DNA of 54,742 nucleotides from an uncultured Candidatus Micrarchaeota archaeon (GCA_903835325.1 CAILMU010000061.1:1-54742), one strand, 5' to 3'. Counted from the stretch's first letter, positions 10,927-38,338 are shown. Numbers and translations: made by a program. Notes: a model not told the origin generated them from the letters alone.

Positions 10927-11340
10927 TCAAAGTTTCCTCGCGAGCATCTTGAAATGGTTCTTGGCAAGGTCAAGCGTCTCGATGCCTTTGCTTGTTATGG
11001 TGTAGTACTTGCGCCTCTCTTCCTGTTCCGCTAGGATGAGGCCTTCGTTCTCGAGCTTATAGAGCACGACGTATATCATTATCTTGTTCGGCTTGAAACT
11101 GAATTCCTTATAGATTCGTTCATCGAGCGCATACGCGTGGATGCGCTTGTCCATCCTGATGAGCGAGAGGATGTAGAGCCAGAGGTTCTCGTTGGTGAGG
11201 AGGTGGCGCAGGCGCTTGATAGGGGCGGTCGGGTTGATATTATTTGATGGGGAGACGGATTCGCCGGATGGGCCTGCGCCGGCCCTTGCGCCCTTGGAAG
11301 CGGCATCACGAGGATCAGTCTTCATCTTGGTCATCCTCAA
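10927..11340 (-). CDS. PadR-family transcriptional regulator
   Basis: The segment LWLYILSLIRMDKRIHAYALDERIYKEFSFKPNKIMIYVVLYKLENEGLI...RKYYTITSKG is a typical PadR winged helix. The track start is TTG at 11340, and an ATG at 11334 is also possible. It abuts or overlaps the stop of the 1256-aa gene. Confidence 0.8.
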   Translation of the reverse strand: MRMTKMKTDPRDAASKGARAGAGPSGESVSPSNNINPTAPIKRLRHLLTNENLWLYILSLIRMDKRIHAYALDERIYKEFSFKPNKIMIYVVLYKLENEGLILAEQEERRKYYTITSKGIETLDLAKNHFKMLARKL

Positions 11341-14300
11341 TCTTTATCTGAGGGTTCCTTTCTCTTTTTTGGCGGGGTGTAACCGATATTTCTCTTCATT
11401 TCATCGAGTTCGGCGTCATCCCGTTCAGCCTGCGTCTGCTGGGGCGATTTCTTTGTGAAAAGGGAAGGCTGCTCCTCGTATCCTTCAGGAGCCCGCTCCA
11501 TCGTCCTATCCAGGCGCGCCAAGCTCTTGAGGTGATCCTCCACATCCCTTGTCGTGGTCGTGTCGGCCTGGTTTGCCGCTGAATTTGCAATGCTCTCGAC
11601 ATCCTTGTTCGACTTGATATCGGCTGAATTGACCATGTTGACCGCGAAATTCTCGGCTGCTCGGCGGTGGTCCTCCAGAGACCGGTCGAGGTCTGCCTGG
11701 CTTGAAGCCTTCAATGCGTCGTTGGCGAATTTCAGCTCGCCGTACGCGCATTGGGCAAGCACATCAGCGTTCGGCAGTTTGGTGTTCGATCCCAATGCGA
11801 CAAGGTCGCCCATGGTGCCATTCACCAGCCTGCTGACATCAAGTTCCGGAGGCGCGTTATGGGTCGTTGGGTCGAGAAGGCTAAGCGCCGCGACCGTATC
11901 GCGCTGCTGGATGTTGAAATATAGGGCCCCGGCTTCGTCTGCAACGCCATAACCCACTCCGACATATCCCCCGTCAGTCGTGCTTGGGAGGAGCAACGCG
12001 CGCATCACGCCTGCCTTCTCCTCGGCATCAGCCGCGAATTGGTGGGCGTTTTTTGTATCGATATTCTCGGGGTAGAGCACATTCGTCATGGCAGAATTGA
12101 AAAGATTTGCCGCTATCAGCTCCTTGTCTTTCGCCCCGGCCTCAGAAGCAGCCTGCTGGACCATCGCTTTCTCCTGTTCTTCGTTGAGCTTGCCTTCGTT
12201 GAACTGCTTGGCGATATCGGAAAGCTTGTCCTGGAATTTTTCAAGTTCAGGGTGCGCCTCCACATATTTATCTGGGAAATGCGCGCCGAAATTATCGTAA
12301 TACTCCTTTGCCGCATGAGCTGCCTCTAATCTCGATTCGGCAAGCTCGTTGCGCACATTGTTGACCTGTTCGATGAACTTGGTCATGCCAGGCTGACCGG
12401 GCATGGAATCCGGGGGCAGGCTCTGCTGGGCCAGGGCAGAAATTTTATTTGCGGTTTCCCCCAGTATTTCCTGACCTGTCCGAGCATCTCTGACGATCAT
12501 GCCCCCAGTTCCGCTCTGTTCCAGAATCACCTTGTCAGTGCCGAAATTCTTGATCATGTCCGGATCATGGAAATTCAGCGTGGTTCCGGTCGAAGCCTGC
12601 TGGGGGTTGGATTGGTAGAACGCTGCCCTTTCCGTTTCGCCAAGTTCCACTCCCTGGCCCCATTTGAGAACAATGGCTGCTTCCTGCGGGCTGAGCGTCC
12701 CCCCTGTCGAAGTGTTTGTCACGGTTTTGCCGTCTGGACCGATACGGAACGTGTTTCCGCTCTCTATCGGAGTTATCGTGATAGTGCCGTCGGGATTGCG
12801 GCGCTTTTCAGCTTCTTCCGGTGGCATCCCTAATTTTGCCAGGGCCGCAGAATCATGGACGATAATCAAATCAGTAGATATTGAACCGTCGGGGTTCACT
12901 TTGAGAGTAACTTTATTCTGGTGCAGTTCCGGAATCACAGCCTGCACCAGGTCCGGATCCGTAACGACGATCTTATCTGACTTTTTTCCTCCTTCGCCGA
13001 CCAGGGCGGTGCCCATTGTGACATCGATCCTCTGGGCATCCAGGCTGTCAGTGTGTATCTGCATCGCACCCCCCGGAAGCAGGATTATATTTGCCCCACC
13101 GGCATTGAACGAGTCGCGGTTGGCTGAATCCATGCGGGTTTTGAAATCCGCTGTGAAGTTTGCGAGTGTCAGTTCCTGCCCCTTAGGCATCTCCAGACCG
13201 AAGGCCTTGGATAATGACACAGGAGCAGAATCCTTGGGCACTTCCACATATTTCCCGTTCTTTTCATAGGCGACGATATTGCCATCGACCACCCTGGCCC
13301 CGTTCCCTGACGGATCGAAAATCAGGCCGGACAATCTTCCGGTCTTGGCATCTATTGACGCGCTCGACTCCACATAAAAGGTATTCGCCCCGACAGACAT
13401 CTGGTTGTAGGTGACAGGATTGCTGTTGGCATCGACCAATACTTTGCCCCCGTCAACCCTCATGACCTGGCCATTGACATAGATGAAACCGGTCTTTTCC
13501 TTCTCATCCCCGCCTTGCAGGAAAAGCCCGTTGGCTTTGTTGCCGCCGACATCGACCTGCATCTGCTTTGCATATCCCAAGTTTGTCTCGAGCTTTGTCG
13601 TATGTGCATTGTATTTCGCCGCATCCTCTGCCGCCCAAGCCTGCTTTATATCAGCCTCCTTTTTCATAGCGCTCTGGTTGGACGCGGTCATGAATTTGAA
13701 GAGGAGGCCGATTACGGGGATCTTGCCCAGGGTTTTGAAAAAGGAGGTCAGCGCATCGCCGTCGCCTCCACCCGTGTATACGACCTTGCCTCCCGCCCCA
13801 GGCGTTGCTGTCGTCTCTGACTTCCCGCCATAGACCGGCATGAGGACCGCGTTCACGTATATCGCCAGGTTCGATGCCATGACCGTCTGGACTACAAGGC
13901 TGCCGAGAAGCTTGCCCCATTGGACAGGCGCCTCGCCTGATGAACCTCTACCCGCGTGCGCAAAGCCTTCCTTGATTTCCTTTTTGAGGCTCTTCTGGCC
14001 TGCCGGTTCGGTCCCCATGGCCTTGCCGACACCTAGTCCAAGGCCCCGGTCCAGGGACTTGCCTATCATATTCATCGAATTGGCGAAAGGAACGAAACCG
14101 ATCGCCACATGTGATACGGCTTTGATGATAGATTTCGGAGTGAACTTGCCTTTTTCAGTCGGATTGAATTGCGAATATGCTCCTCCGCCGCCTCCTTTAT
14201 CATCTCCGCCTTCCTGCGTCGCTGAATAGATTTCTCCGGCTGTCGATGCCATGGACATGGCGAATGCGCCCCAGTTCAGGGCCTTGCCCCTCATCCTCGG

Positions 14301-15107
14301 CTCGTATCGCGGCTTGTAAGATATGCGGGGAGAAGAGAAATCAAAACCTGCAAACGGGTTCTTGCCGGACAGCTGCATCGCCCCGATGAGGAGCCCGAGC
14401 ACGAGGAGGAATGGAAGGCATATATCGCCCGGGATCTTTGAAGCCTCGGGCGGGGGCATCGGGCAGTACGGCACGGCGCTCATAGCCGGGAGGATTGAAT
14501 AGGTCTCAGGAAGAAGGATGGGCGAAGGCACGAAGCTTATACCCGGGGCGCCAGGTACGCCCAGAAGGCCGTTAGAGGGGTATGTGTTGATGGTGTCCCT
14601 GGTTATGCCTGTCATGTTGAAGCACTGCTCCAATCCGCACCCGTTCGAGAACGGGCAGTAGATGAAGACGAAGCTCTGGCATCCTATGGCAGGTTTCATT
14701 TTGTCATAGTAGGAGAGGTTCATGGTGGCTTGTCCGGTCTCGTCGGTGTAAAGGACCCAAAGGTCTTTCTGGCCCGGGACGAACGCGATGATGGTCGTGT
14801 TCTTGACAGGCTGGTCGGATGGGGAGGCGCTCGTGTTCTTGAAAGTGAGGTATAGCTGGATTTCATGGTAAACCGGATCCACGATGGCGATCATGCGCGG
14901 GTTGGTGTAATCCCCTATCCCGATGCAGCTCGGGCACTCCCCGTTATCACCTGAGTATAAACCAAACTGGGCGGCGAACGGGTTTGAGGAATCGAATGCA
15001 TAGGAATATGGAGAGGCGCCTTGCGTGAGCGGGAAAGAGAGATTTGCCAGGATGAGCAATATTACCGCAAGAACTGGAAAGCGCAACCGCTTCATGACCT
15101 TAAACAT
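11337..15107 (-). CDS. module gene 0, copy A: giant membrane-anchored protein (1256 aa)
   Basis: Signal peptide, then an ectodomain of about 200 aa with Cys and sequons (GECPSC, CPFSNGCGLEQC). TM helix is ICLPFLLVLGLLIGAMQL, followed by a basic stretch (PRISYKPRYEPRMRGK). A long, nearly Cys-free hydrophilic region follows. Paralogue of 28231-32568. Confidence 0.9.
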   Translation of the reverse strand: MFKVMKRLRFPVLAVILLILANLSFPLTQGASPYSYAFDSSNPFAAQFGLYSGDNGECPSCIGIGDYTNPRMIAIVDPVYHEIQLYLTFKNTSASPSDQPVKNTTIIAFVPGQKDLWVLYTDETGQATMNLSYYDKMKPAIGCQSFVFIYCPFSNGCGLEQCFNMTGITRDTINTYPSNGLLGVPGAPGISFVPSPILLPETYSILPAMSAVPYCPMPPPEASKIPGDICLPFLLVLGLLIGAMQLSGKNPFAGFDFSSPRISYKPRYEPRMRGKALNWGAFAMSMASTAGEIYSATQEGGDDKGGGGGAYSQFNPTEKGKFTPKSIIKAVSHVAIGFVPFANSMNMIGKSLDRGLGLGVGKAMGTEPAGQKSLKKEIKEGFAHAGRGSSGEAPVQWGKLLGSLVVQTVMASNLAIYVNAVLMPVYGGKSETTATPGAGGKVVYTGGGDGDALTSFFKTLGKIPVIGLLFKFMTASNQSAMKKEADIKQAWAAEDAAKYNAHTTKLETNLGYAKQMQVDVGGNKANGLFLQGGDEKEKTGFIYVNGQVMRVDGGKVLVDANSNPVTYNQMSVGANTFYVESSASIDAKTGRLSGLIFDPSGNGARVVDGNIVAYEKNGKYVEVPKDSAPVSLSKAFGLEMPKGQELTLANFTADFKTRMDSANRDSFNAGGANIILLPGGAMQIHTDSLDAQRIDVTMGTALVGEGGKKSDKIVVTDPDLVQAVIPELHQNKVTLKVNPDGSISTDLIIVHDSAALAKLGMPPEEAEKRRNPDGTITITPIESGNTFRIGPDGKTVTNTSTGGTLSPQEAAIVLKWGQGVELGETERAAFYQSNPQQASTGTTLNFHDPDMIKNFGTDKVILEQSGTGGMIVRDARTGQEILGETANKISALAQQSLPPDSMPGQPGMTKFIEQVNNVRNELAESRLEAAHAAKEYYDNFGAHFPDKYVEAHPELEKFQDKLSDIAKQFNEGKLNEEQEKAMVQQAASEAGAKDKELIAANLFNSAMTNVLYPENIDTKNAHQFAADAEEKAGVMRALLLPSTTDGGYVGVGYGVADEAGALYFNIQQRDTVAALSLLDPTTHNAPPELDVSRLVNGTMGDLVALGSNTKLPNADVLAQCAYGELKFANDALKASSQADLDRSLEDHRRAAENFAVNMVNSADIKSNKDVESIANSAANQADTTTTRDVEDHLKSLARLDRTMERAPEGYEEQPSLFTKKSPQQTQAERDDAELDEMKRNIGYTPPKKRKEPSDKD

Positions 15108-15145
15108 CAGATAAGCCTTAATAACTATTAGGGTTAATTGATTTC
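15108..15145. promoter_or_regulatory. 38-bp divergent control spacer, copy A
   Basis: Sequence CAGATAAGCCTTAATAACTATTAGGGTTAATTGATTTC has two AT-rich boxes, each about 22-30 nt from one of the two ATGs. The 5' part is conserved with copy B. Confidence 0.45.
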
Positions 15146-16432
15146 ATGCGTTGGCAGATGCTGATATTGATCCTTTTTTCACTGTTCGGCCTGTCATTTG
15201 CCGATGGCACAGATGTGTACCTGGCCATCTTCCCGGTTTGCGTCGTCATTGTCGCGATTATCCTAGGGATACTCAACATGGCGGCCGAGACATTCTCGCT
15301 CCCGGGCTTATCCGCGTATGTGAAAACCGAGCTGGGCGAGCTCGTGAGCGGGGTCGTCCTCGCCCTCATCGTCTATGCTTTCGTGCTCGGCACGAGCCAG
15401 GTCCTTCCAACACTTCTGGTCGGACAGAGCGCAACCAACGCCGCCCTTGATTACATCCACAAAGAGGTCTCCCTCTTCCAGACGACATACTGGGGAATCA
15501 TCAGGATAGGGACGCAGCTGAAGGCGATGGTCTCCTTCAGCACGCAGCAGGTCCTTCCTGCAGGGTGGGTAAGCTGGGCGCACAGCATCTCGCCTTACCC
15601 AGGCCTGGCCCCGCTGCTCTCGATACTTTCAATGGCGGTCCAGGGAGTCAGCAATAATATCCTGCTTTATCAGACGCTTTACCTGCTGCTCCAATTCTGC
15701 TCGGCGATAATCCCGACGATAATACTTCCTGTCGCCCTGTCGATGAGGCTGCTCCCCATCACAAGGCAGGCGGGGACGGCCGTCGTTGCGATATGCATTT
15801 CGCTTATCGTGATATTCCCGTGGTCGGTGGTCTTTGTCCAGCAGATACACAGCGTGCTCCCATACCAGGATCCTACCATTGACGCGAACGGGGGGGACGT
15901 GGTGGGAAGGATAATCAACACGCTGGGCGTGCACTTCCCGCTCACATCGTTCCTGAACGAGCTTTGCCAGAACAATGCTATCCGGCTTCTCCTGAGTTTG
16001 AACGAGCAGGGGACGTGGCTGCTATTCTGCACGCCGATATGCGCTATCGTCGCAGCGGTCCAGGCAGCCGCTTGCCTGACAGGATACGCGGGGTGCTTCC
16101 TGAATTTTTTCATGTTCTGCTGGTCTCCGATAGAATATATGGGCACGAAGGGGTATTGCTACAACATCGTAACCGCCATCGCATACCCTATCATGGTGGG
16201 AGTCTCGCAGATCGTTTACAATATCGGCGCCGCGTTCATGAACGTCCCAAGCGAGAAGGCAGGGGAGATATATGATGTCATGTACCCGTTCATGCGGGAC
16301 ATAAACAACATGGTGATGATGGGTTACGTGGATGCGATGATAATCGGGATATTCACGATCGTGGGCTCCAGGTCCATCTCAGCCGCCCTTGGCGGAGAGT
16401 GGTACATGATAAAGTTCCAGAGGCTGGTCTGA
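15146..16432 (+). CDS. module gene 1, copy A: polytopic membrane protein (428 aa), paralogue-family member
   Basis: Signal peptide and multiple TM helices. Family motifs present: FSLPGLSAYVKTELGEL, ILPVALSMRLLPITRQAG and C-terminal ALGGEWYMIKFQRLV. Confidence 0.9.
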   Translation: MRWQMLILILFSLFGLSFADGTDVYLAIFPVCVVIVAIILGILNMAAETFSLPGLSAYVKTELGELVSGVVLALIVYAFVLGTSQVLPTLLVGQSATNAALDYIHKEVSLFQTTYWGIIRIGTQLKAMVSFSTQQVLPAGWVSWAHSISPYPGLAPLLSILSMAVQGVSNNILLYQTLYLLLQFCSAIIPTIILPVALSMRLLPITRQAGTAVVAICISLIVIFPWSVVFVQQIHSVLPYQDPTIDANGGDVVGRIINTLGVHFPLTSFLNELCQNNAIRLLLSLNEQGTWLLFCTPICAIVAAVQAAACLTGYAGCFLNFFMFCWSPIEYMGTKGYCYNIVTAIAYPIMVGVSQIVYNIGAAFMNVPSEKAGEIYDVMYPFMRDINNMVMMGYVDAMIIGIFTIVGSRSISAALGGEWYMIKFQRLV

Positions 16433-17445
16433 TGGATGGAATCAAGAGATGCCAGCCCGGTTTTGGAGCGGATATTCCGGGGTTGATTCTAAGGTCCGCG
16501 TTTTTCTTCCTGCTGATCGCTTACATATCGCACCCAGGGGATTTTGCGTGCGTGCAGAATGCGGGCGATACTGTTATTTCCGGGGCAGGAGCGTATATCG
16601 GCATCGCAACCATGCTGATGGTGCTTGTCATCGCAGCAGCCTACATGCTCGGCATGACGACGAGCAACGCCAATGCCATCGTGTTCGCCAAGGACGAGCT
16701 TTTCCACCTCGGGTTTTCCATCGTGCTGCTCCTTGGGATCGGCGGGATAATGGCATCCGGCTGCCTGATCACGAATTCGATGTTCTCGCTCACGTTCAAG
16801 CAATCATCGGACATCTACCATTATTATTCAGATTGCGGCGGCGAGACAGCGGATCCGACCAACCTCACCGTGTGCGCGATATCCATGCCCCTGAAGGCAT
16901 CCAACAGCCTTATCGGCACCTACACGCAATACAGCATCAATAACATGATGCAATCGAACTGGTTCTACACATATGCGCTCCCGTTCACAGACATCGTGAC
17001 CACAAACGCCGCGGCATACAGGCGCACATGGTCCACCGAGAACGACATGGTCCTCAATACGTTCATCGTGCCTTCGTATGTCAGCCTCAAGATGCAGCAG
17101 ATACTCCTGGGGCTTTTCAGCCAGTACTCCGTGGAGCTGCTCCTTCCTGTCGGGTTCATATTCAGGTTCATCCCGGTTTTCAGGAAATTCGGCAACTTCC
17201 TTCTTGCGATGGCTTTCGGTTTCTATATAGTATTGCCTTTCTTCGCAACATTCAATTTCTTCGTATACGACCATTTCGCAAACTCCCCGATCCCCATCAA
17301 TGGCTTCAAATTCGCAGACAACTCGAATGGATTCTATACCATCTCGCTGCTGGTATCTCAGGCGTTCTTCCTGCCCAACCTGACGATAGTCCTTTTCATC
17401 ACATTCCTTTCAGGGATCAACAAGGCGCTCGGGGCGATCGGATGA
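16432..17445 (+). CDS. module gene 2, copy A: polytopic membrane protein (337 aa), family member lacking the C-terminal tail
   Basis: TGATG overlap with gene 1, the same as in copy B. Motifs YMLGMTTSNANAIVFAKDELFHL and LLPVGFIFRFIPVFRKFG. The protein ends ...INKALGAIG. Confidence 0.85.
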   Translation: MDGIKRCQPGFGADIPGLILRSAFFFLLIAYISHPGDFACVQNAGDTVISGAGAYIGIATMLMVLVIAAAYMLGMTTSNANAIVFAKDELFHLGFSIVLLLGIGGIMASGCLITNSMFSLTFKQSSDIYHYYSDCGGETADPTNLTVCAISMPLKASNSLIGTYTQYSINNMMQSNWFYTYALPFTDIVTTNAAAYRRTWSTENDMVLNTFIVPSYVSLKMQQILLGLFSQYSVELLLPVGFIFRFIPVFRKFGNFLLAMAFGFYIVLPFFATFNFFVYDHFANSPIPINGFKFADNSNGFYTISLLVSQAFFLPNLTIVLFITFLSGINKALGAIG

Positions 17446-19787
17446 GAAAACTTGCGATTTTCCTGGTGCTGGCGTTGCTGATCGGCCAGGTATCGGCGGA
17501 TGAGAGCGGCCCGACATCCACGGCGCTTTCCGCGGTCGGGACAAACCCGGACCTTGTCCACGAGCTTTTCTCGGACTGGCAGGCGATAACGCTCATCGCG
17601 ATAATGCTCTCGGCCATGCTCGTCTCCTTGGCTTACATGCTCGGGATTGGTTTTGAGATCCCCTCCTTGAAAGCATGGGCCGGCACCGAGCTTGGCCAGG
17701 TGATAGCGAGCGCCATCATCGTGCTGACATTATGGGTCCTCATGGGGATAATCGATTTCAATGTCGCGCTTGTGGTCAACAGCTCCGTGGCGAGTGTTTC
17801 CCAAGGGATGCCCTCTTGCATGGCCGTCGGAGAGCCGTGCCTGAAGGATGCGGCGGTGTTCTACCTTGATGGCTACATCGCGTCGGCAAAGAGCGCTGCC
17901 CGCGCCATTTTGGTCAACAATATGGACGCGGCGAACAAGGCGAACAAGAGGGATTTCTTCAGCTGCTCGCTCGCTATCTACCCCCTCCCATGCATGCAGT
18001 ATTCAAGCCAGTCATCAAATGATGCGTACCTTGTCCTGGATGTCGACAAGAACACGCTGTTATTCGAGAATTACGCATCGCTCCTCTCATCGATGGAGGC
18101 GCAGGAATTCTTCGTCAAGAACATCTGCTTCCTGGTCGGGCCGTATATCCTCGCCCTCGGGATCCTGGCAAGGACATTCTTCATGACCAGGAAGCTCGGC
18201 GGGCTTCTTATCGCTGCCGCTGCGGCGCTTCTCTTCGTGCTTCCCCTGATGTATATGTTCAACTGGATGACGCTCAACCTGGACTTCAGCGGCGATAAGG
18301 AATTCGGCAGCCAGGCCAGCATGTGCCCGGAGGAGTGCTCTGCCATGCCGCCATTGGTCTATGATGCCAATGTAGTCGGCGGGAAGAACTTCATTTACAG
18401 CAGCCAAGACTTATATGGCATGTTCTACGATGCGAAGAAAGACCCGCTGATCACAAAGAACCTGACCAACGGGATCATAGGAACGTATGACTGGAAGACC
18501 GAGTTGCCGGGAGTGACACCTAGCAAGGGGCCGCCAGACCCTATGCTCACATCATGCCAATCCCAGGCCACAGTGAAGATATCCGACCTGCCGGCTGATT
18601 CCGCATTCGATTATTCCACGCTCTGCGCGAAATACGTTGACAACAGCCTGATAGTGCAGACATGCGGTTCGCAATACCAGACCCAGGATGCCAGCGGGAA
18701 CACCGTGATGCTAACCATAGACAACGCTTCGATAGAATGCCCGTATTTCTGCAGGGAGCTCCCATACCCTTATGTGAATTCCTTGTGCGCCCCGCCCATC
18801 ATCCAGAAGGCTTGCGCCAAGCTTCCGGAGATCTGCAAGGTGAGCCGGAAGGCCACCCTCAACACATTGAGCAATCATGCCGACGATGATTTGAGCTGCG
18901 TCCAGGAATGCAGGGTCGTGCCTCCCTTGAACAACAGCTGCGATGTCGGCAACTGCCTTGAGTCGAGGGCCGACTGCAGGGTCTCCATGCGAAACGATAC
19001 GAACTATCGGATCACACTGATCGGACAAAATACAGGTTCCAGCGATTCGAACATGGCCAATGAATCGCTGAAGTGCTCATGGGCATCCGAATGCCCGGCG
19101 AGCCTGGTGGCAAACGAGTCATGCACCTGGGTATTGCCCCGCACCCCGCAGGACTGCAAGGAGATATGCCCTTCATGCCCGAGCGAATGCAGGGTGACCG
19201 GCATGGATGGCTCGGAGCAGGAGATGCTGCCTGATAGCTGCTACAGCGATTCGTCGAAAACAACGCTCATCGACTCGTGCAGCAGCGCGAACTGCCCGGA
19301 CTCGTGCAAGATACCTATCCAGAGGATAAAGATGCTGGACCCGACAAACATCGCATGCAAGACAAGCGACGGTTCGAGCCAGTGCAGGTGGGGATGCAGG
19401 GTCGCAGGGACGAGTTCGGTTCCGACCGGATGCGATCAGACCGCTTGCAGCCTCAACGTCTGCGGCGGATCATTCAGGGAGACCGTGCCATCCAGCTCCT
19501 GCCAGAAATGCCTGGATGTGGAGGCTAATTTCCATTATGACCCGGCGGTCCTGCGCAACTGCGCCGATTATTGCGCACCGCAGAAGAACCCGACCGAGAA
19601 CCCGGTCAAACCGCTCACCATGAACGGGTTCGTGGGGGGCGGGGATTACCAGAACATCGCGCAGCTCATGATCCAGGCATACCTGCTTCCGCTGTTCGAT
19701 TTCGCTGTCACGCTCATGTTCGTCCGTTCGTTCTCGGGGATGCTTGGTGGCGACATAGAATTGCCAGGGGTTTCCAAGGTGATATGA
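17442..19787 (+). CDS. module gene 3, copy A: membrane protein (781 aa) with a large Cys-rich ectodomain insertion
   Basis: ATGA overlap with gene 2. Signal peptide is MRKLAIFLVLALLIGQVSA. Motifs YMLGIGFEIPSLKAWAGTELGQ, ILARTFFMTRKLGG and C-terminal MLGGDIELPGVSKVI. The Cys-dense region spans about aa 280-735. Confidence 0.9.
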   Translation: MRKLAIFLVLALLIGQVSADESGPTSTALSAVGTNPDLVHELFSDWQAITLIAIMLSAMLVSLAYMLGIGFEIPSLKAWAGTELGQVIASAIIVLTLWVLMGIIDFNVALVVNSSVASVSQGMPSCMAVGEPCLKDAAVFYLDGYIASAKSAARAILVNNMDAANKANKRDFFSCSLAIYPLPCMQYSSQSSNDAYLVLDVDKNTLLFENYASLLSSMEAQEFFVKNICFLVGPYILALGILARTFFMTRKLGGLLIAAAAALLFVLPLMYMFNWMTLNLDFSGDKEFGSQASMCPEECSAMPPLVYDANVVGGKNFIYSSQDLYGMFYDAKKDPLITKNLTNGIIGTYDWKTELPGVTPSKGPPDPMLTSCQSQATVKISDLPADSAFDYSTLCAKYVDNSLIVQTCGSQYQTQDASGNTVMLTIDNASIECPYFCRELPYPYVNSLCAPPIIQKACAKLPEICKVSRKATLNTLSNHADDDLSCVQECRVVPPLNNSCDVGNCLESRADCRVSMRNDTNYRITLIGQNTGSSDSNMANESLKCSWASECPASLVANESCTWVLPRTPQDCKEICPSCPSECRVTGMDGSEQEMLPDSCYSDSSKTTLIDSCSSANCPDSCKIPIQRIKMLDPTNIACKTSDGSSQCRWGCRVAGTSSVPTGCDQTACSLNVCGGSFRETVPSSSCQKCLDVEANFHYDPAVLRNCADYCAPQKNPTENPVKPLTMNGFVGGGDYQNIAQLMIQAYLLPLFDFAVTLMFVRSFSGMLGGDIELPGVSKVI

Positions 19788-19788
19788 C

Positions 19789-20775
19789 ATGAGGCGGCTA
19801 ACACTGGGTTTTTTCATCCTTCTGCTGTTCAGCCAGTTGGCGTTCGCCCAGTGGGAAAGCGTCGCGGCCATTTCCGTCATAACCTCCGCAGCCATGCTCG
19901 GCCTCCTGTATATGATTGGTTTCGGATTCGGCATCCACGAGCTGATATTGAGCTCGAAAGAGGAGGCGTACCAGCTTGTTGTGGTGATCGCCATGATAGG
20001 CGGTCTCATAATCGTCCAGACAGGCGGGGATGCTATTTTCGGGGCGATGGCCGGGTATTCCACCACCATACAGGATACGGCGAAAAGCGATGCCGACGCC
20101 ATGATCACGAACCTAGCTTCCGAATTCGGGGTGCTTGCAACCCTGGAGAACGATGTCGCATATCAAGGTTCCCGGTCGCTCTCCTGCACGCTTTTCACTG
20201 TGGGCCATACTATCAGCGGGTGCGGAGGGTATTCCATGGTGAGCCCGGCCATATCCGGCGTAGAGGCAACGGTGGGGCTGGGGATAGCAGAGCTCAGCTC
20301 GCTGTCAAGGCTGATGATGATCGGCAAGGAATACTCGTTCCTCCTCCTGCTTCCGGTCGGGATAATCCTGAGGACATTCAAGATAACGCGCGGGGCCGGA
20401 GGCCTCATCATCGCTCTTGCTATCGCGCTCTATTTCGTCCTCCCGCTGATGATAATAACGATGTTCGGGATAGCCGACCAGTTCAAGAACAGCTCGGCAG
20501 GAGCCTCGTATAAGGCCGGACTGCCTTCGATGAATGTGATAGAGTGCGTACCGCAGGACACCGATGACGGGACTGGTGAGGGCACTAACCCTGGCCGGGC
20601 GATGAATATCCTGGACCAGATGATCGCGGCGACCCCGCAATACATTTTCGCACCGTTGATATATGGGATAATCACCCCTGCAATAGCATTGCTCGGGACC
20701 ATCGCCAGCCTAAGGGCATTGGCAAGCATAAGCGGCGCCGACATAGATGTCAGCGCATTGTCCAAGGTGATATGA
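19789..20775 (+). CDS. module gene 4, copy A: polytopic membrane protein (328 aa), family member
   Basis: Signal peptide present. Motifs YMIGFGFGIHELILSSKEEAYQL, LLPVGIILRTFKITRGAGG and C-terminal SGADIDVSALSKVI. Confidence 0.9.
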   Translation: MRRLTLGFFILLLFSQLAFAQWESVAAISVITSAAMLGLLYMIGFGFGIHELILSSKEEAYQLVVVIAMIGGLIIVQTGGDAIFGAMAGYSTTIQDTAKSDADAMITNLASEFGVLATLENDVAYQGSRSLSCTLFTVGHTISGCGGYSMVSPAISGVEATVGLGIAELSSLSRLMMIGKEYSFLLLLPVGIILRTFKITRGAGGLIIALAIALYFVLPLMIITMFGIADQFKNSSAGASYKAGLPSMNVIECVPQDTDDGTGEGTNPGRAMNILDQMIAATPQYIFAPLIYGIITPAIALLGTIASLRALASISGADIDVSALSKVI

Positions 20776-20778
20776 AGG

Positions 20779-21834
20779 ATGGTGGATGTGTGCTCGGCCG
20801 GATTTTCCGACTTCATATATTCAGGCGTGATGCCAGCCGCCGCAGTGTCCGCGATCGCCGCGACCGCCGTGATCGCGGCATCTTACATGTACGGGAAGGC
20901 GACAAGCAATCCGAAACTGAACGACTATTCGAAGACCGAGGCGGTCCAGCTTCCGATAACGATCGCTTCCATCATATTCATCGTGCTGGTCATCAGCTCA
21001 TTCTGCAGCATCGACATGAACAGCGTAAGGGCGGTCTTCAACCTGCCCGTGCTCCCCAACTCGACCGATGTCTTCGGGGCCGCGGAATCGTACCTGGACA
21101 ACAGCGCGATTTTCGCCCAGCAGGCCCTTGTCACGGCCCGCTACCAGCACTCGGCGTATAATATCCTGCTGATGAGGAGCACCTATGCCTGCGAGTGGTG
21201 GTGCATATTCGGGCAGTCAGGTTTCAGCTATCAGGGATTCTCGGGTTACACCGGCAGGATGAACCTGATGGGGATGCTGATGAACACGAGCCTCATCTCC
21301 CTGTTTTCAGCATTGAATGCGCTTTTCATTTTGAATTTCGTGAAAAGCGGGTTCTTCATGATGCTCCTGCCCATCGGCATTTTCACCAGGTCGATGCCGT
21401 ATCTTCGCGCTTTCGGATCGATATTCATAGCGATAGCCATGTCATTTTTCCTGATATACCCGGCGACGCTTGCGGTCTTCTCGATGATGGATAAGCTTTT
21501 CACATCGCCTTTGGACGGGCTGACCTGCCAGTCCGGGGACAACACGATTGTTATCAAGGATTATTTGCAGAACGATGAGAACATAATAAGCAGGGATGAT
21601 TCGGATCCGGGCCTGAATATTGGAGAGAAACTGCATGATGATGAACTTGCCAGGGCTTACCTGCCCTGCGGCCAGGATTACCCTGCCCAGACAGCGCAGC
21701 TGGCCGCCTATGCGTTCATAGCGGCGGCATTCCTGCCGACGGTCGCTCTTCTGGCTGCAGCGGCAAGCGCAAGGTATATCGCCAAGATGTTCGGGGAAGA
21801 GGTAGACCTCAGCAGGGTCGCCCAGATGGTGTAG
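20779..21834 (+). CDS. module gene 5, copy A: polytopic membrane protein (351 aa), family member
   Basis: Motifs YMYGKATSNPKLNDYSKTEAVQL, LLPIGIFTRSMPYLRAFG and C-terminal MFGEEVDLSRVAQMV. In frame with gene 4, separated only by TGA and one codon. Confidence 0.85.
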   Translation: MVDVCSAGFSDFIYSGVMPAAAVSAIAATAVIAASYMYGKATSNPKLNDYSKTEAVQLPITIASIIFIVLVISSFCSIDMNSVRAVFNLPVLPNSTDVFGAAESYLDNSAIFAQQALVTARYQHSAYNILLMRSTYACEWWCIFGQSGFSYQGFSGYTGRMNLMGMLMNTSLISLFSALNALFILNFVKSGFFMMLLPIGIFTRSMPYLRAFGSIFIAIAMSFFLIYPATLAVFSMMDKLFTSPLDGLTCQSGDNTIVIKDYLQNDENIISRDDSDPGLNIGEKLHDDELARAYLPCGQDYPAQTAQLAAYAFIAAAFLPTVALLAAAASARYIAKMFGEEVDLSRVAQMV

Positions 21835-21887
21835 AAGGATGGTGCTTGCGATTAGGATTGGCGGGATAAAGGAACAATACAAGCGGT

Positions 21888-22940
21888 GTGGATATGCCTA
21901 TTGAATTCGTGCATCTGATTCTGGAAGGGGAGCTGGTCCCCAGCTCAACGATCCTGCCTTTGGAGATATGGGTAGGCCTCGCGCTCCTCTCCACGATGAC
22001 GGTCCTCCTTATCCACCTCATAATCCTGATGCTCGCCAGGGCATTCGATATCGCCGATCTCAAAGCGTATGCCGAATCCGAGATGCTCCAGGCGGCCGCG
22101 ACATTCGTGATGGCAGGGTCCATAATAATCCTTCTCGGCGGTGCCTCGAATTTCGCATACACTCAACTCTTGAGCGGAGGCCAGGTACAATGCGGCGGAA
22201 GCATGATGGACCTGGGGCACGGCGAAAATTCGTTCGCCAAAGGGCTGGAGATCGTCCGCTGCAGGCTTCTTGAGAAGGCGACTGCCATGTACGACCTGAA
22301 CAACGAGGTCAACAAGCAGGCCAAGGATTCGGGGATATTCGACAAGCTGAACGACCGGGAGAGCTTGTTCGGGATGGCGGTTTCCCAGGGAGACTGGGAT
22401 CCGACATTATATGAACAGGCCGAGAGCTACAGGTATGCCAACACCGTTTCTGCCAACCTCATGATCGCCTTGAACGCCCAGGCATTCTTCATAACATATG
22501 TGGAGAAGAACATGGTCGTCTTCTTCCTCCCGCTGGGGATAATCCTGCGCGGTTTCAATTTCACAAGAGCGATAGGCGCTTTCCTGATATCCCTCGCTAT
22601 CGGCCTGTATTTCATCCTGCCGGTCATATTCGTCCTGACGGATCCGGGTTTTGTGAGGGTGCCGCCAATCAGCAATGTCGCGACCGTGCCTTCATATTGC
22701 TATAGCACTTTCGCCGGGGTGATCACCCTCGTCAACCTGCCCAAGGTCGAGACGATAGCCGAGACCCAGACGCAGATGACGCTGTCGTCAGCAAGTTCGG
22801 CGCTGGGGAACCTGTACACGAGCCTGATAGTGCAGCCTTTCGTCGTATTGTCAATAACGCTGGTGTTCATAAGGTACGGCATGTCCCTCCTGGGGGGCGA
22901 GACGATGGAGCTTATGAGACTTGCCGGGAGGGTGGTCTGA
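21888..22940 (+). CDS. module gene 6, copy A: polytopic membrane protein (350 aa), family member
   Basis: Motifs LMLARAFDIADLKAYAESEMLQ, FLPLGIILRGFNFTRAIGA and C-terminal LLGGETMELMRLAGRVV. The track start is GTG, and the ATG at 21894 aligns better with copy B. Confidence 0.9.
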   Translation: MDMPIEFVHLILEGELVPSSTILPLEIWVGLALLSTMTVLLIHLIILMLARAFDIADLKAYAESEMLQAAATFVMAGSIIILLGGASNFAYTQLLSGGQVQCGGSMMDLGHGENSFAKGLEIVRCRLLEKATAMYDLNNEVNKQAKDSGIFDKLNDRESLFGMAVSQGDWDPTLYEQAESYRYANTVSANLMIALNAQAFFITYVEKNMVVFFLPLGIILRGFNFTRAIGAFLISLAIGLYFILPVIFVLTDPGFVRVPPISNVATVPSYCYSTFAGVITLVNLPKVETIAETQTQMTLSSASSALGNLYTSLIVQPFVVLSITLVFIRYGMSLLGGETMELMRLAGRVV

Positions 22941-25900
22941 TGAAAATACTGCCGATCGCGATTTCATTGATGGCTTTTCTATTGATTGCCGGCTGCCTCG
23001 AGATGCCGAAGAACTACTCCTGCTGCCTGAAGGTGAATGCGAGCGATCCGCAGGACAAGTGCGTGATGTACAATTCGTCAGACCCTGACCATCCGATAGA
23101 CCTTTCTGCCAACACGACAAGCTGCAATGTCACGGCAGGGACGTGCAACATAACCACCAAAGCAGGAGGCATAAACTTCGTGGGGGCCTTCCCAGTTATT
23201 ATCGCCGTCCCCTACCCCCCGGAGACAACCCTTCTGCAGATATGCACCGAAGCAGCGCCCCAGAAATGCATCGACCCGGAATGCAGCGCCATGGTCTGCG
23301 GGGATTTCGAATACACCCCGAAACTCGGGTCTTCTGCCGAAGAGATGGAGAAGGGCCTGCCGAACCCGCCGGAGACCAGCGCGGCGATCAACCTCTACCA
23401 CGGCCAGTGCAAGATCATGCCGATGGATTACAAGCTGGCCAATGTCTTCGAAAACTCGCCGAGCTACTTGAACCGCTTCAGGCTGGGGATAGGAAGCAGC
23501 TTCGAGGAGTATTCGGCGTATAGCACATTTTTCCCTACATCCGACAAGTTCTGCAATGCAAACCCACTGGGCACCATTGACCGCTATGAGAATTACCTCA
23601 CAGCTGCTGAAACAGTCTACGATCCGGTCAAGGAAATCAACGATTCATGCGTGAGCGACAAGAATCCGTCTGAAACGCCGCTTTCATTCAAGCTCGGCTC
23701 CCTGAATATCGGGGGCGACGGGAATCTGAAGACAGGGTATAAAAACGCGAATTTCATCCGGCAGGTCGTTTTCCCCTGGTACAGCGACCAGGCCGGGGGT
23801 GGAAATCACGCGACCCCATCGTCATCCAACGGCAAACCGCTCTATGCTATCGACACGCATGACTTCACCGGCGAGAAGATAGCGTACATGACCCCATATT
23901 CGAGGCCGGATACGAAATTCTATGGCACCGAGCTCCAAAAAGTCTACATGGACGGGGCGTTCGAGTTCGACTTGTGGGTCATAAGCGTCAACAACAAGCT
24001 GGACCAGCTCAATGTCGGCCCGGAGCCATCCATGCCGGCTGTCTGCAAGAATTGCTTCGATACCTGCAATGAATCGATAACATGCATGAAGTCATCCATA
24101 TACCAGCAGTATTGCCAGGATTATTGGGACAACAGCGATGCCTGGGCAGCCAAAAAGAAAGCGGCCGAGGATGCGGTGACAAAAGCCCTCGGACAGAAGC
24201 CGAAGGAGGCCCCCCGGGGCGCGTACGAGTGCGACCCCCTCAATCCTACAGAATGCATGTCCGCGCGCTGCGATACCCAGGACTACAGCAGGATAAATCT
24301 CTTCACACGCGACCAGGAGGTCGCACTGCCATGCAGCCATTCGAAAGTCAATGAGACCCGTTTCGGCGGAAACGTCACCGAATATGATGTCATCACCTGC
24401 AAGCCGTCGATAATGAATCAGGGGGCGGGGGGGAAGCCGGTTTTCAGCACAGCCAAAGCGGATTACCTGCAGGGCAATGGCGATTACGCCACTTCAGATG
24501 CCGGCGACATCGTGCTGTTCAGTTTCCCATTTTCCAAATACCCGCCCGACCATGTTGTGGCTCATACCGAAACAAACCTGTTCGGCACTTCCAGCGCCTC
24601 AGACGCCGGCTGTGTCGACCCCGCGAGGTGCGTGCAGGGGGCGTATCCGGCCGAGTACAAGACGGATGGGAAACCCGTGGTCGGCTACACCGTAATGAAC
24701 CGCGATGAGTTCCCCAAGACGATGCTTGCGCAGATCTGCAACCTCCAAGAAGGACAGGATTACCAGGTGGTGGAAGTTAATGACGATACCGCATGCGGGA
24801 TATCAGAGTATGCGCCCGAAAATGCCTGCCTCATCGTCAAGGACCCGAACTTGCCGGTTGGGAAGAACACGTGCAATATCATGTACGGCAACTGCGGCAC
24901 GGGCTTCCTTGCGACGGACGTCGGACCTCATGAGATGAATTACTATGGAGGGAATCCTTTGATCGTCTACAACGGGTTGGTGCGCACATTCGGAAAGAGC
25001 AGCATATTCATCCCGATATGGCATGGCGACCCTCATGGGCCCGGGTCGTACATCAATAACTATGGTTATGCGAACACGATTTTCCCCGAGGAGATCAGGC
25101 CCCAGTTCGTCAAAGACCTGGAAATCAAATACAACAATACCGGGTATGATTACGAATGCCTCAAGACCCCGAGTCCGGAGTCAGGACTCCCGCCCATCAC
25201 AGATTGCCTTGCAGGGATTTCGAACGCGCCCAAGGAGATAGTATTGATCAACGGATTCGGGACATGCAACTTCAACTATTCATCCCGGGAGCTGGAAACA
25301 GAATACCCGGTCACAAAAGAGTATGGATGGTGCGACAGCTGTTCGCTTGCGACCCTGGCATACCAGAAGGTCGAAAGGAGAGGCGTCCCATACGTGCCGC
25401 TGAATGAAGTCGGATTCAGCTCCATCAGCGGTTCTGCATCGGTGTACAAGATAGACCGCTCAAGCGGAACCCCGGCAACGCTGATAAGCCCGGAAGTGTT
25501 TGAAGAATCCCAGTTGAATGACCCATACCAAACTACCCCGATATGCTCCTGGAACCCCGGTTATCACATTGGGTCATCCATACCTTCAGGTCAGATGAAT
25601 TGCAGCAGCAACAGGGATTTCGAACCGTACCACAAGAACAACCCATTTTACATACAGGCCCCTAAGGAGGTGCCGGAAGCGACATACCTGAAGAACCAGA
25701 TGGCGCGCCTTCTCCAGTCCGGGGCGATCCCGATACTGGATCTGAGCGACAAATCTAATTGGGAACCTGGCGATGCGGGGATTGACTTGGGGAGTGCGTT
25801 GCAACAAGGGGTCACAGCGGTGCAGATCGCAGCCGGTGGAAAGGATCCGGTGGCGAAACTGGTCTATAATATCGGGGCGGTGATTGTGGTCGTCCAGGAT

Positions 25901-27961
25901 TCGAATTCGGTCCTTGGGCAGCCCAGCCGGGACGAATTGAAGAACAGGAGCGCCCTCGTCCATGCGACATGCCCGAGATGCCTCACAGCCGTCCATATAA
26001 GCAGCCTGAGCGGGACGGATAATGCGACCTTTGTCAACGAGGTGAGCGACATCTTCGGCGGCAAGGACTGTTTCGGGCTCGCAGGGAATCCGGTCGGAGG
26101 GCAATGCGACATGCAGGTCGCTGATGACCCTCTGCTTGGCGTGGACCTGGTGATCTTCGATTACGGGGTGCAGGAAAACCAAAAAGCGTATGCTGATGCG
26201 ACAAACCCGAAAAAGAAGGCGGATGCCGTCCTTCTGGACTTGGAGAACAGGGGATCCTACCTTCTTCAGAACTATAAGAAACCGTCGATAATCTACGATT
26301 TCTGGGTAGGGCAGGATATCCCCGGCAATGATGAATACCATGCCAAACTCGCATGGAATGATACCGAGGTCCGGCAATTGTTCAATGAGATAATCAACAA
26401 GGAGGACGGATTGGTGGCTGCCGGGATCAACGGGATATTCTATTCGCGCATCGCTGAATTCGGGCCGCTGGACTGGTCGAAACTGCAGGCGCAGGATGGA
26501 AGCATCCACGAGGCGATGTGCTCGCTCAGCAACGCATCCACGAGGATGGTGGCGCAGAAGCCGATGTCGTTCTTCAAGCGGGTATATGCCTCCGGCAACG
26601 TGAGCTGCGTGGATTGCACGGCCGACGACCTGTACAGCGGGAAATGCAATATGAACTGTTCGGATGGCACGCAATGCCTGCCTGGAGCGGATGTGAAGCC
26701 GCCTTACCTGGTCAGGTGTCCGGATGACGGCGTCCCTGAGCCATGCACGCCCTGCAACGAGACAGGGAAGACCTACACGTGCAGGGTGGAATACGACAAT
26801 GGCTCGGTGATCGTGCAGGATGTGGATTCGAAGGATATGAACACCGACTCATACGCCGATGTCATCTCAGGCCTCAATCCGCCGGATAAGTGCTGCATCA
26901 GCAAGGGCGGGACGAACTACACATATATGCAGCAGTCTGTGACGCTGAGCGTCGATGCGCCGATCGCATTCTCGAAGACCGGGGACACGAACATAGACTG
27001 CTCTTTCCCCTCGGCCTCATCGCAGAAACCCAGCGACTCGCAGTTCTGCAATGTGAAATCGATGGCTACCAATTACCGGGTCTCCTGCTTTGACAAGACC
27101 ACTTATGCGAACCTTAACAGCAAAGGCGCATTCAAAAACGGATTCGACTTCAATATCAACTACAACCAGCTTGGCGGCACCGGGAAGACCGGCGACTTGC
27201 CGGGGCAGGTCAGCCTCGGCAATATTTTCAAGAGCGGTTCTGGAAACCCCTCGGCCGGCGGCACCCCGAACGGAGTGATCACAAGCCCCGGGGCGGCGTT
27301 AGCGCAGGATCCCTGCCTTAGCAGCATGATATCCTCTTCGGGAGGCCATGTCAGGATAGGTTCAGGAAGCGGATATTCAGCGTCATCGCAACCGGTCGGA
27401 CCAGGAGGAGTGACCCCTGGCGGGACCGGGCAGACCGATTCCGGAACTGGTACGACGGAATGTCCGCCGGAGGTGTTCGCATGCTCAGCCGCGGCATCGT
27501 CTTTCGAGAAGGATGCCGAGATCAAGTGCAAAGCGTATATCGCCGATTGCAAGGTCCACCCGTACAACTACACCGCTACGGGGATATACCAGTATTGCTA
27601 TGGCGAGGACAGCTGCCAGCTGGCATATGACCGCTACTGCGCCAATGTCACGAAGAAATACGGCGCAGACGCATATTGCAACAACAATTGCTGCAAGAAG
27701 AGCTGTGAAACCTTCTGCTCAGGAGCCGGAGGAACGTCTTGCACGACCACCTGCCAGGACGGCCCGTGTCCGCCAGAAATGAAGCTTTGCCAATGCGCAG
27801 TGCAGACCGGGGGTAGTTGCGTCAAGGACTGCAAGGATGCGATCGGTTCGAGCAGTCCGATCGTCAACCCGCCATACCCATGGGCGCCTGGAGGCGCTCT
27901 TGCCGGCAAGAGCAACGATCCCTGCGGAGTCTATCAGAAAACAACGGAGACACCGAAATAG
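22940..27961 (+). CDS. module gene 7, copy A: giant Cys-rich, sequon-rich secreted or lipoprotein-like protein (1673 aa)
   Basis: TGATG overlap with gene 6. Signal peptide with lipobox-like LLIAGC. Five N-x-S/T sequons in the first 75 aa. Cys occurs throughout, with a very dense C-terminal Cys cluster and no C-terminal TM. Confidence 0.9.
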   Translation: MKILPIAISLMAFLLIAGCLEMPKNYSCCLKVNASDPQDKCVMYNSSDPDHPIDLSANTTSCNVTAGTCNITTKAGGINFVGAFPVIIAVPYPPETTLLQICTEAAPQKCIDPECSAMVCGDFEYTPKLGSSAEEMEKGLPNPPETSAAINLYHGQCKIMPMDYKLANVFENSPSYLNRFRLGIGSSFEEYSAYSTFFPTSDKFCNANPLGTIDRYENYLTAAETVYDPVKEINDSCVSDKNPSETPLSFKLGSLNIGGDGNLKTGYKNANFIRQVVFPWYSDQAGGGNHATPSSSNGKPLYAIDTHDFTGEKIAYMTPYSRPDTKFYGTELQKVYMDGAFEFDLWVISVNNKLDQLNVGPEPSMPAVCKNCFDTCNESITCMKSSIYQQYCQDYWDNSDAWAAKKKAAEDAVTKALGQKPKEAPRGAYECDPLNPTECMSARCDTQDYSRINLFTRDQEVALPCSHSKVNETRFGGNVTEYDVITCKPSIMNQGAGGKPVFSTAKADYLQGNGDYATSDAGDIVLFSFPFSKYPPDHVVAHTETNLFGTSSASDAGCVDPARCVQGAYPAEYKTDGKPVVGYTVMNRDEFPKTMLAQICNLQEGQDYQVVEVNDDTACGISEYAPENACLIVKDPNLPVGKNTCNIMYGNCGTGFLATDVGPHEMNYYGGNPLIVYNGLVRTFGKSSIFIPIWHGDPHGPGSYINNYGYANTIFPEEIRPQFVKDLEIKYNNTGYDYECLKTPSPESGLPPITDCLAGISNAPKEIVLINGFGTCNFNYSSRELETEYPVTKEYGWCDSCSLATLAYQKVERRGVPYVPLNEVGFSSISGSASVYKIDRSSGTPATLISPEVFEESQLNDPYQTTPICSWNPGYHIGSSIPSGQMNCSSNRDFEPYHKNNPFYIQAPKEVPEATYLKNQMARLLQSGAIPILDLSDKSNWEPGDAGIDLGSALQQGVTAVQIAAGGKDPVAKLVYNIGAVIVVVQDSNSVLGQPSRDELKNRSALVHATCPRCLTAVHISSLSGTDNATFVNEVSDIFGGKDCFGLAGNPVGGQCDMQVADDPLLGVDLVIFDYGVQENQKAYADATNPKKKADAVLLDLENRGSYLLQNYKKPSIIYDFWVGQDIPGNDEYHAKLAWNDTEVRQLFNEIINKEDGLVAAGINGIFYSRIAEFGPLDWSKLQAQDGSIHEAMCSLSNASTRMVAQKPMSFFKRVYASGNVSCVDCTADDLYSGKCNMNCSDGTQCLPGADVKPPYLVRCPDDGVPEPCTPCNETGKTYTCRVEYDNGSVIVQDVDSKDMNTDSYADVISGLNPPDKCCISKGGTNYTYMQQSVTLSVDAPIAFSKTGDTNIDCSFPSASSQKPSDSQFCNVKSMATNYRVSCFDKTTYANLNSKGAFKNGFDFNINYNQLGGTGKTGDLPGQVSLGNIFKSGSGNPSAGGTPNGVITSPGAALAQDPCLSSMISSSGGHVRIGSGSGYSASSQPVGPGGVTPGGTGQTDSGTGTTECPPEVFACSAAASSFEKDAEIKCKAYIADCKVHPYNYTATGIYQYCYGEDSCQLAYDRYCANVTKKYGADAYCNNNCCKKSCETFCSGAGGTSCTTTCQDGPCPPEMKLCQCAVQTGGSCVKDCKDAIGSSSPIVNPPYPWAPGGALAGKSNDPCGVYQKTTETPK

Positions 27962-32568: not shown

Positions 32569-32606
32569 CAGTTAAGCCTTTAAAAATGGCAATGATAAAT
32601 ACCAAT
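32569..32606. promoter_or_regulatory. 38-bp divergent control spacer, copy B
   Basis: Sequence CAGTTAAGCCTTTAAAAATGGCAATGATAAATACCAAT. TTTAAAAA lies about 22-30 nt upstream of the ATG at 32607. TATTTATC on the minus strand lies about 25-31 nt upstream of the ATG at 32568. Confidence 0.5.
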
Positions 32607-37272: not shown

Positions 37273-37273
37273 C

Positions 37274-38287: not shown

Positions 38288-38338
38288 ATAATAGACAACA
38301 TATGCACCACCGCTTTCAACGTCTTCGTAGATTCCCAG

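Follow-up and report, generated by a model that had tools for sequence, protein, structure and literature searches.

Described systems of comparable architecture

The FliP/FliQ/FliR (SctR/S/T) gate, which serves export in flagella and injectisomes, has a pseudo-hexameric core of five FliP subunits and one FliR, with FliQ arranged around it. In mycobacteria, six paralogues encoded in fixed order in one operon, Mce1A-F, reportedly build a single heterohexamer in the published structure. The VirB6/TrbL/TrwI proteins are polytopic proteins of the inner membrane with long helices and big extracytoplasmic parts; enlarged VirB6 paralogues occur in tandem in obligate symbionts such as Rickettsiales. 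Here we describe a set of six consecutive genes for polytopic membrane proteins, present twice in a 54,742-nucleotide (nt) stretch of DNA (hereafter, the window) from an uncultured Candidatus Micrarchaeota archaeon (GCA_903835325.1, CAILMU010000061.1:1-54742). The six proteins belong to one new family and are probably subunits of one membrane complex. The DPANN archaea form an abundant group with few cultured members, and the molecular basis of their envelope and cell-cell contacts is largely obscure.

The six proteins resemble FliP, FliQ and FliR in being small, polytopic, built of hairpins, mutually related, encoded by consecutive genes and, probably, assembled into one core; however, the Micrarchaeota set has six distinct subunits with five transmembrane (TM) helices each instead of three proteins in a 5:4:1 ratio, shows no profile or fold similarity, has no FlhA, FlhB or ATPase partners and is found in archaeal DPANN hosts. 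The Mce proteins are the best analogy for six genes in fixed order, but they are single-pass proteins with an MCE domain and a helical needle, and they come with YrbE permeases and an ATPase; such domains were absent here in Pfam scans. With VirB6 the new proteins share polytopic organization, long helices, large outside parts and tandem paralogues with extensions, but no VirB4, VirB2 or other genes of a type IV secretion system (T4SS) were found near the six-paralogue cluster. The architecture of the whole module corresponds to no described system, and no description of the six-gene cluster was found in the searchable literature.

Two six-gene sets in the window

The window contains two diverged copies (A and B) of an eight-gene block made up of gene 0, six paralogues (positions 1 to 6) and gene 7. 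Cluster coordinates and gene calls made in an earlier reading of the sequence (the initial annotation) agree with the translated window. The paralogues are as follows (lengths in amino acids, aa).

15146-16432, + strand: paralogue position 1, copy A (A1), 428 aa; additional hydrophobic stretches separate TM4 from the last TM helix; tail GGEWYMIKFQRLV
16432-17445, + strand: paralogue position 2, copy A (A2), 337 aa; the sole subunit without a C-terminal tail
17442-19787, + strand: paralogue position 3, copy A (A3), 781 aa; Cys-rich ectodomain of ~450 aa between TM4 and TM5
19789-20775, + strand: paralogue position 4, copy A (A4), 328 aa; the most typical member
20779-21834, + strand: paralogue position 5, copy A (A5), 351 aa
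21888-22940, + strand: paralogue position 6, copy A (A6), 350 aa; GTG start
32586-40424, + strand: six paralogues of copy B, with the same order and the same tails as copy A; 47-62% identity
32586-33854, 33854-34951, 34948-37272, 37274-38287, 38339-39367 and 39381-40424, + strand: genes 1-6 of copy B

Position 1 of copy B starts at 32586 or at an internal ATG at 32607. Neighboring genes within the six-gene sets share 1-4 nt or leave gaps of 1-3 nt, with the exception of three wider junctions (A5/A6, 53 nt; B4/B5, 51 nt; B5/B6, 13 nt). The blocks (11337-27961 and 28231-45526) lie in tandem and protein identity between them ranges over 37-62% (gene 0, 37%; the six paralogues, 47-62%; gene 7, 42-45%).

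Six versions of one protein family

The initial annotation assigned the six proteins to a single paralogous family by three shared motifs, located in the N-terminal TM hairpin, the central loop and the C-terminal tail. Every motif instance that it quoted was located in the translations of both copies. All-versus-all BLASTP among the paralogues produced collinear alignments of 200-350 aa, and residues M42, E59, L188, P189, R195, R201, G204 and P219 (position-4 numbering) were invariant in a 10-sequence alignment. Over 186 sequences (A4 numbering) conservation was 98% for E59, 100% for R195, 99% for R201 and 100% for both G204 and P219.

For profile-profile comparison one alignment per position was built from 31 gene sets, and all 15 pairs of positions were compared by hhalign. 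Similarity was significant for each of the 15 pairs (Prob 98.3-99.9%, E from 1.5e-14 to 3.7e-32, 196-327 columns); thus, the single family holds in an objective profile-profile comparison. The family hidden Markov model (HMM) gave scores of 222-338 bits to the 12 window proteins, all of which form part of the model. The window proteins carry the conserved E59/R195/R201/G204/P219 set and their tails fit the position consensus. Sequence comparison confirmed that all 12 proteins make one family with six anciently diverged versions. An internal duplication relating the TM1-TM2 hairpin to the TM3-TM4 hairpin was rejected (hhalign Prob 0.15%).

Occurrence in other genomes

A word-indexed homologue search gave few members, and the size of the family was visible only in an exhaustive search. 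The initial annotation had proposed a search of metagenomic protein sets; HMMER run exhaustively against 1.84 billion representative proteins detected 3118 representatives at E ≤ 1e-3 (745 at E ≤ 1e-30), which makes the family widespread. The named homologues are all 'hypothetical proteins' of Micrarchaeota metagenome-assembled genomes (MAGs), e.g. of Bilamarchaeum and Anstonella. True members, such as VVB58705.1 of Ca. Anstonella stagnisolia, are encoded in the same six-gene clusters, which carry no annotation. A scan for the position-4 pattern, with one genome per GTDB species, identified 35 loci, all in Micrarchaeota-type MAGs; two MAGs bear the title 'Candidatus ainarchaeum sp.', which did not resolve in the taxonomy, so that their placement is tentative. 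No relatives were found on IMG/VR contigs or in plasmid or phage collections.

Complete loci (n = 30), namely the 29 of the 35 loci not cut by a contig end and the first Anstonella cluster, were scored with the family HMM. Each of the 30 had exactly six members in the same order and of similar sizes, typically about 400, 335, 700, 330, 350 and 345 aa for positions 1-6. Among the top 20 cross-genome BLAST matches, 97-100% belonged to the same position, and the median identity of orthologues was 36-40%; therefore, the six positions represent six orthogroups.

Two divergent variant clusters (the second Anstonella cluster and one on another contig) retain the order 1 to 6, with longer proteins at position 3 (1126-1143 aa), position 4 (683-933 aa) and position 5 (876 aa). 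In the second Ca. Anstonella stagnisolia cluster (L037 10001-15432), positions 4 and 5 have N-terminal extensions of 540-630 aa and position 3 has 84-100 Cys; one variant-cluster extension contains CARDB (adhesion-type) domains. The occurrence data are best explained by a module specific to Micrarchaeota, with the six paralogues as its likely conserved core.

Predicted topology and structure of the subunits

Sequence statistics and models lead us to infer five TM helices per subunit, with the N-terminus outside and the C-terminus inside. Among the 186 sequences, the loop between TM3 and TM4 (loop 3) contains 2.5 K/R and 0.03 D/E per sequence. Cys residues are confined to two regions predicted to be outside, TM2-TM3 (ecto1) and TM4-TM5 (ecto2), while loop 1, loop 3 and the tail have essentially none. 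The cytoplasmic location that the initial annotation proposed for the R-rich central loop and the tail is borne out by both the K/R statistics and the placement of Cys. The TM4-TM5 insert of position 3 has a median length of 392 residues with 32 Cys. Signal-peptide-like segments are present at the start of positions with long N-terminal parts, and the CARDB extension is N-terminal, in agreement with the N-terminus being outside.

AlphaFold2 models were obtained for position 4 (A4; predicted local distance difference test, pLDDT, 84.2; predicted template modelling score, pTM, 0.76) and position 3 (A3; pLDDT 71.6). In the models, helices of 26-48 residues are accompanied by a single beta-hairpin and a short helix at the end. 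The long helices are predicted to project beyond the membrane on the outside. Judging from helix lengths, they may pack into a bundle ~3-5 nm tall, capped by the Cys-containing beta-hairpin. Residues invariant throughout the family sit at or near the predicted cytoplasmic face (E59 after TM1; R195, R201 and G204 between TM3 and TM4); P219 is located in TM4. Shared residues on one membrane face fit either equivalent contacts in a pseudo-symmetric assembly or one common partner.

C-terminal tails

In the 31 gene sets the C-terminal tails are position-specific and strongly conserved, with the following consensus sequences.

Tail of position 1: ALGGEWYMAGIQRLI
Tail of position 3: LGGDIEIPGLSKVF
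Tail of position 4: AGAEVDVSAISRFV
Tail of position 5: YGEEIDLSRITQLV
Tail of position 6: LGGDTYELTKMVSKVI

Position 2 has no tail in any of the 31 sets and terminates just past the last TM helix (NKALRVIG). Its tail-less end had been noticed in the initial annotation and is present in both window copies (...NKALGAIG in A, ...NKALSVIG in B). The tails of copy A and copy B are almost identical, and the near-identity extends across genomes.

Search for known relatives

Neither the six paralogues nor gene 0 nor gene 7 had a match in Pfam-A, NCBIfam, PHROGs or PADLOC. Single scans of 32 family members against Pfam produced no recurring weak match, and family profiles had no match among PDB sequences. 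Foldseek comparison of the A4 model with 350,542 PDB chains found none at E ≤ 0.001 (best E 0.12, template modelling scores (TM-scores) about ≤ 0.26); the same was true for the A3 model against the same 350,542 chains (none at E ≤ 0.001; best E 0.51, query-normalized TM-score ≤ 0.11). A fold search of BFVD with the A4 model gave no match (best E 0.21). The initial annotation called the family new, and this stands against Pfam, NCBIfam, PHROGs, PADLOC and PDB sequences, as well as against PDB folds for the two AlphaFold2 models. By these sequence and model comparisons, the family appears unrelated in sequence or fold to any characterized family tested.

The candidate families named in the initial annotation (VirB6/TrbL, GspF/PilC, FliPQR and holins) were all negative by Pfam, by hhalign for VirB6 and FliPQR, and by PHROGs. 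For FliP, FliQ and FliR (PF00813, PF01313, PF01311) there was no Pfam match at E ≤ 1 among 12 window proteins and 32 members, and homology was rejected by hhalign against E. coli FliP, FliQ and FliR (Prob ≤ 0.6%), so the parallel drawn with them is purely conceptual, as it had been presented from the start. Export-gate chains were not among the 50 matches listed in the Foldseek searches of PDB with the A4 and A3 models, and Pfam matches of the window neighbors and related loci included no FlhA/FlhB-type partner or export ATPase. VirB6/TrbL (PF04610) was rejected likewise: Pfam gave no match, and when R388 TrwI and six plasmid homologues were compared by hhalign with the whole family and with the single positions, Prob was 0.2-0.6%. 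The TrwI fold of the R388 T4SS (7o3v_J) had Foldseek rank 37 against the A4 model, with E 0.56, TM-score 0.25-0.28 and a root-mean-square deviation of 11.8 Å.

The platform proteins GspF/PilC/FlaJ (T2SSF, PF00482) had no Pfam match; their helical bundle is cytoplasmic, whereas the helical extensions of the six paralogues are on the outside (Cys-bearing and opposite to the K/R-rich loop). Mce (PF02470) had no Pfam match either, and the subunits have five hydrophobic segments rather than a single N-terminal TM helix. Holins and other phage membrane proteins were rejected as relatives, with none in PHROGs, IMG/VR or the phage collection and a best E of 0.21 in BFVD.

Genes accompanying the six paralogues

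The module includes two giant proteins and a putative regulator.

10927-11340, - strand: PadR-like winged-helix protein (Pfam PadR, E 4.9e-9); 4-nt overlap with the gene 0 stop
11337-15107, - strand: gene 0, copy A, 1256 aa; divergent, upstream of position 1; all Cys within the first 300 aa
22940-27961, + strand: gene 7, copy A, 1673 aa, 77 Cys; start overlaps the position 6 stop; seventh cistron
28231-32568, - strand: gene 0, copy B, 1445 aa; the first ~630 aa share 37% identity with copy A
40424-45526, + strand: gene 7, copy B, 1700 aa with 83 Cys; 42-45% identity with copy A

The N-terminal ~280-300 aa of gene 0 are conserved in 24 loci. They comprise a signal peptide, a Cys-containing ectodomain of ~200 aa with invariant Cys, a proline stretch and one TM helix, followed by a basic juxtamembrane motif, NPFGGFN..PRIGKHIRYQARGRG. 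The remaining ~1000 residues are poorly conserved and, being nearly Cys-free past the TM helix, are probably cytoplasmic. Gene 0 is located downstream of gene 7 in four loci, still within the module. In the window, gene 0 and position 1 start divergently, 38 nt apart in copy A (15108-15145) and 17-38 nt apart in copy B (32569-32585); with so short a spacing, the promoters overlap or sit inside coding sequence, or the transcripts are leaderless.

As an example of a docking site for the C-terminal tails, the initial annotation suggested the cytoplasmic part of gene 0. This suggestion is weakened: the tails are near-identical while the ~1000 cytoplasmic residues of gene 0 are poorly conserved, and a variable region fits poorly as a docking site. 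On the cytoplasmic side of gene 0, only the basic juxtamembrane motif appears conserved enough to serve as a common partner. This motif or the neighboring subunits would be better candidate partners for the acidic tails.

Orthologues of gene 7 (1300-1900 aa) come after the sixth paralogue in 31 loci. Copy A has a lipobox-like N-terminus (LIAGC), and G18-C19 together with ~40 Cys along the whole length are invariant in 25 orthologues; gene 7 is therefore predicted to encode a giant secreted lipoprotein. It had no Pfam or PDB sequence match. The best conserved part, residues ~870-1235 (25550-26650), has alternating strand-like and helix-like hydrophobic segments (..PILDLSD.., ..AVIVVVQD.., ..VDLVIFDYG.., ..KPSIIYDFWV.., ..GINGIFYS..), a pattern which suggests a beta/alpha barrel-like domain; a homologue search with this central region returned nothing. 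No domain common to the subunit-3 ectodomain, gene 7 and gene 0 was found. The known Micrarchaeota surface-layer (S-layer) protein is defined by an S_layer_N domain (10.1101/2021.04.28.441871), and the absence of this domain led us to reject the giant proteins as S-layer proteins.

Orthologues of the PadR-like gene (52-64% identity) adjoin the cluster in 18 other loci, among them two with gene 0 at a different place (L029, L036), and the PadR-like gene is a candidate local regulator of the module. Synteny of the module with ScpB and a P-loop kinase recurs in many genomes. In the window, these ancestral neighbors (the PadR-like gene, the kinase and ScpB) adjoin copy A only; hence, copy B looks like an inserted duplicate. 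In other genomes a gene downstream of gene 7 (L026 18850-20505, L013 18305-20503) encodes a conserved protein, anchored by a C-terminal TM segment, that has a signal peptide and a Lon-type S16 protease domain. This gene for an extracytoplasmic protease comes after a double zinc ribbon gene. Both are absent from the window, and since they are not kept here they are probably not part of the core.

Function of the module

The initial annotation took the six proteins for subunits of a hetero-oligomeric assembly. This inference is much strengthened by the finding of six members in the same order, in six orthogroups, in 30 of 30 loci. Six-of-six co-occurrence, fixed order, overlapping genes, position-specific features retained at 36-40% identity and duplication of the whole set argue for obligate subunits of one hetero-oligomer, and the simplest stoichiometry would be one of each. 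On balance, we think that this complex of six subunits is a membrane core which anchors or presents large surface structures and is coupled to the cytoplasm via gene 0; that the six constitute one complex is held with more confidence than the anchoring role as a whole. In such a complex, six different, anciently diverged subunits, one of each, would be joined by equivalent subunit-to-subunit contacts formed by the residues common to all six, and the short acidic-hydrophobic tails of five subunits would secure the cytoplasmic face or attach to a single conserved partner. The complex would anchor and present the Cys-rich insert of subunit 3, the CARDB-type extensions of subunits 4 and 5 in the variant clusters and the giant lipoprotein of gene 7, while gene 0, through its single TM helix and long tail, would tie it to the cytoplasm. 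An anchoring and presenting core is favored because only the ectodomains vary and expand (Cys-rich insert, CARDB, giant lipoprotein).

Several considerations weigh against the anchoring core. The case for a complex is made from comparative genomics (co-occurrence, order and gene overlap). Neither an ATPase nor a known domain of transporters or gene for surface filaments was detected in the module by Pfam scans, so its role is deduced from context. Gene 7, with its own Sec or lipoprotein-type signal, could act independently, and the conserved residues, which lie at the cytoplasmic face and not outside, are no less compatible with gating or a partner inside the cell than with a passive anchor. 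Participation in host contact is possible but not implied, because several of the carrier lineages have been proposed to be metabolically self-sufficient (PMC8561730).

The main rival explanation, possible though in our estimate unlikely, is that the six subunits form a translocation conduit in which the helical bundles make a tube. It would be either a dedicated gate through which the giant Cys-rich proteins are exported or assembled, or a channel for uptake or exchange. The similarity of the six polytopic subunits, the long helices that protrude in the AlphaFold2 models, universally conserved E/R/R at one membrane face that could gate or couple, a giant secreted gene 7 product translationally coupled as the seventh cistron, and the parallels with the FliPQR gate and with Mce tunnels, which are heterohexameric, are all consistent with a conduit. 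However, neither the window nor 38 related loci encode an ATPase or another energizing component, the N-terminal signal sequences of gene 7 and gene 0 are ordinary ones, no conserved polar stripe was noted inside the TM helices (the invariant residues are in loops), and Foldseek found no similarity to known channel folds. The favored complex may still possess a central conduit, but no energizing or cargo gene points to one. A more doubtful proposal is that a pseudo-sixfold alpha-helical tube, closed or of lock-washer form, would constitute with the Cys-rich ectodomains and gene 0 a symbiont-side host-docking apparatus exchanging lipids, metabolites or macromolecules. The lock-washer form is considered because five tails for six subunits would, by counting only, match five interfaces. 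One candidate counterpart of the proposed tube is a barrel-like docking platform that cryo-electron tomography (cryo-ET) showed in the envelope of ARM-1, a related archaeon (PMC11329633). In the ARM-1/Metallosphaera system it is the host, and not the DPANN cell, that makes the nanotube (PMC11329633), which rules out the module as the nanotube.

In many genomes gene 0 is co-directional with the PadR-like gene, the P-loop kinase and ScpB, and its ~1000 nearly Cys-free residues would be cytoplasmic. These observations could point to a tether between cytoplasm and envelope used in cell division or chromosome handling, with the gene 0 tail as a scaffold; we regard this as very unlikely given that gene 0 is downstream of gene 7, away from ScpB, in four loci, that no ScpB or kinase adjoins copy B, that the cytoplasmic region is poorly conserved and that synteny with ScpB and the kinase may simply be inherited. 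Slightly less credible still is separate action of the six paralogues, as homo-oligomeric channels or receptors of differing specificity clustered only via tandem duplication. Tandem duplication is indeed the simplest origin of paralogues, but strict six-of-six presence in fixed order with overlapping genes at a median orthologue identity of 36-40%, preservation of the tail-less subunit 2 and the subunit-3 ectodomain even in variant clusters, and copying of the entire set in the window duplication are hard to reconcile with independence. The two diverged copies in one window and the toxin-antitoxin-type genes close by (HEPN/nucleotidyltransferase, 9883-10861; AbiEii, 46123-46788) might be taken as signs of a virus, plasmid or other mobile element. 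We give this hardly any credence, as the chromosomal neighborhood is conserved in many genomes and no relatives were found in IMG/VR, PHROGs, phage and plasmid collections or BFVD; a viral, plasmid or defense-system origin was rejected for lack of support in these collections and in PADLOC.

Whichever function is carried out, six fixed paralogues, two giant partners and a putative regulator make up a sharply defined module, widespread in metagenomes (about 3100 representative clusters), which offers a definite object of study for cryo-ET, proteomics and multimer modelling of cultured Micrarchaeota. The favored anchoring complex may be a new case of an obligate heteromer derived from ancient paralogues, and its subunits may have a new membrane-protein fold. 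If the module proved to be a transport or host-contact machine, it would represent a new class of archaeal envelope systems.

Other genes in the window

The genes that flank the blocks have archaeal housekeeping roles (aTrm56, ScpB, P-loop kinase and adenylosuccinate synthetase). Neither tRNAs nor Rfam RNAs were found in the window. Two further giant open reading frames (ORFs) are present.

1577-6928, + strand: giant ORF, 1783 aa, 3 Cys; no signal peptide, no Pfam match
48061-54741, - strand: giant ORF, >2226 aa, running off the window end, 2 Cys; no signal peptide, no Pfam match

These ORFs had no relatives in 38 fetched loci; from their sequences, both appear to encode cytoplasmic proteins unrelated to gene 0 or gene 7.

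The pair of HEPN and MNT-type nucleotidyltransferase genes (9883-10861, - strand) is located between the P-loop kinase and the PadR-like gene, and the same pair occupies the same place in another locus (L014). The AbiEii-type nucleotidyltransferase toxin gene (46123-46788) is accompanied by an unlabelled ORF, to 47479 (+ strand). The G+C content at 46-48 kb is 0.49 compared with ~0.56, and this low-G+C patch may be acquired DNA.

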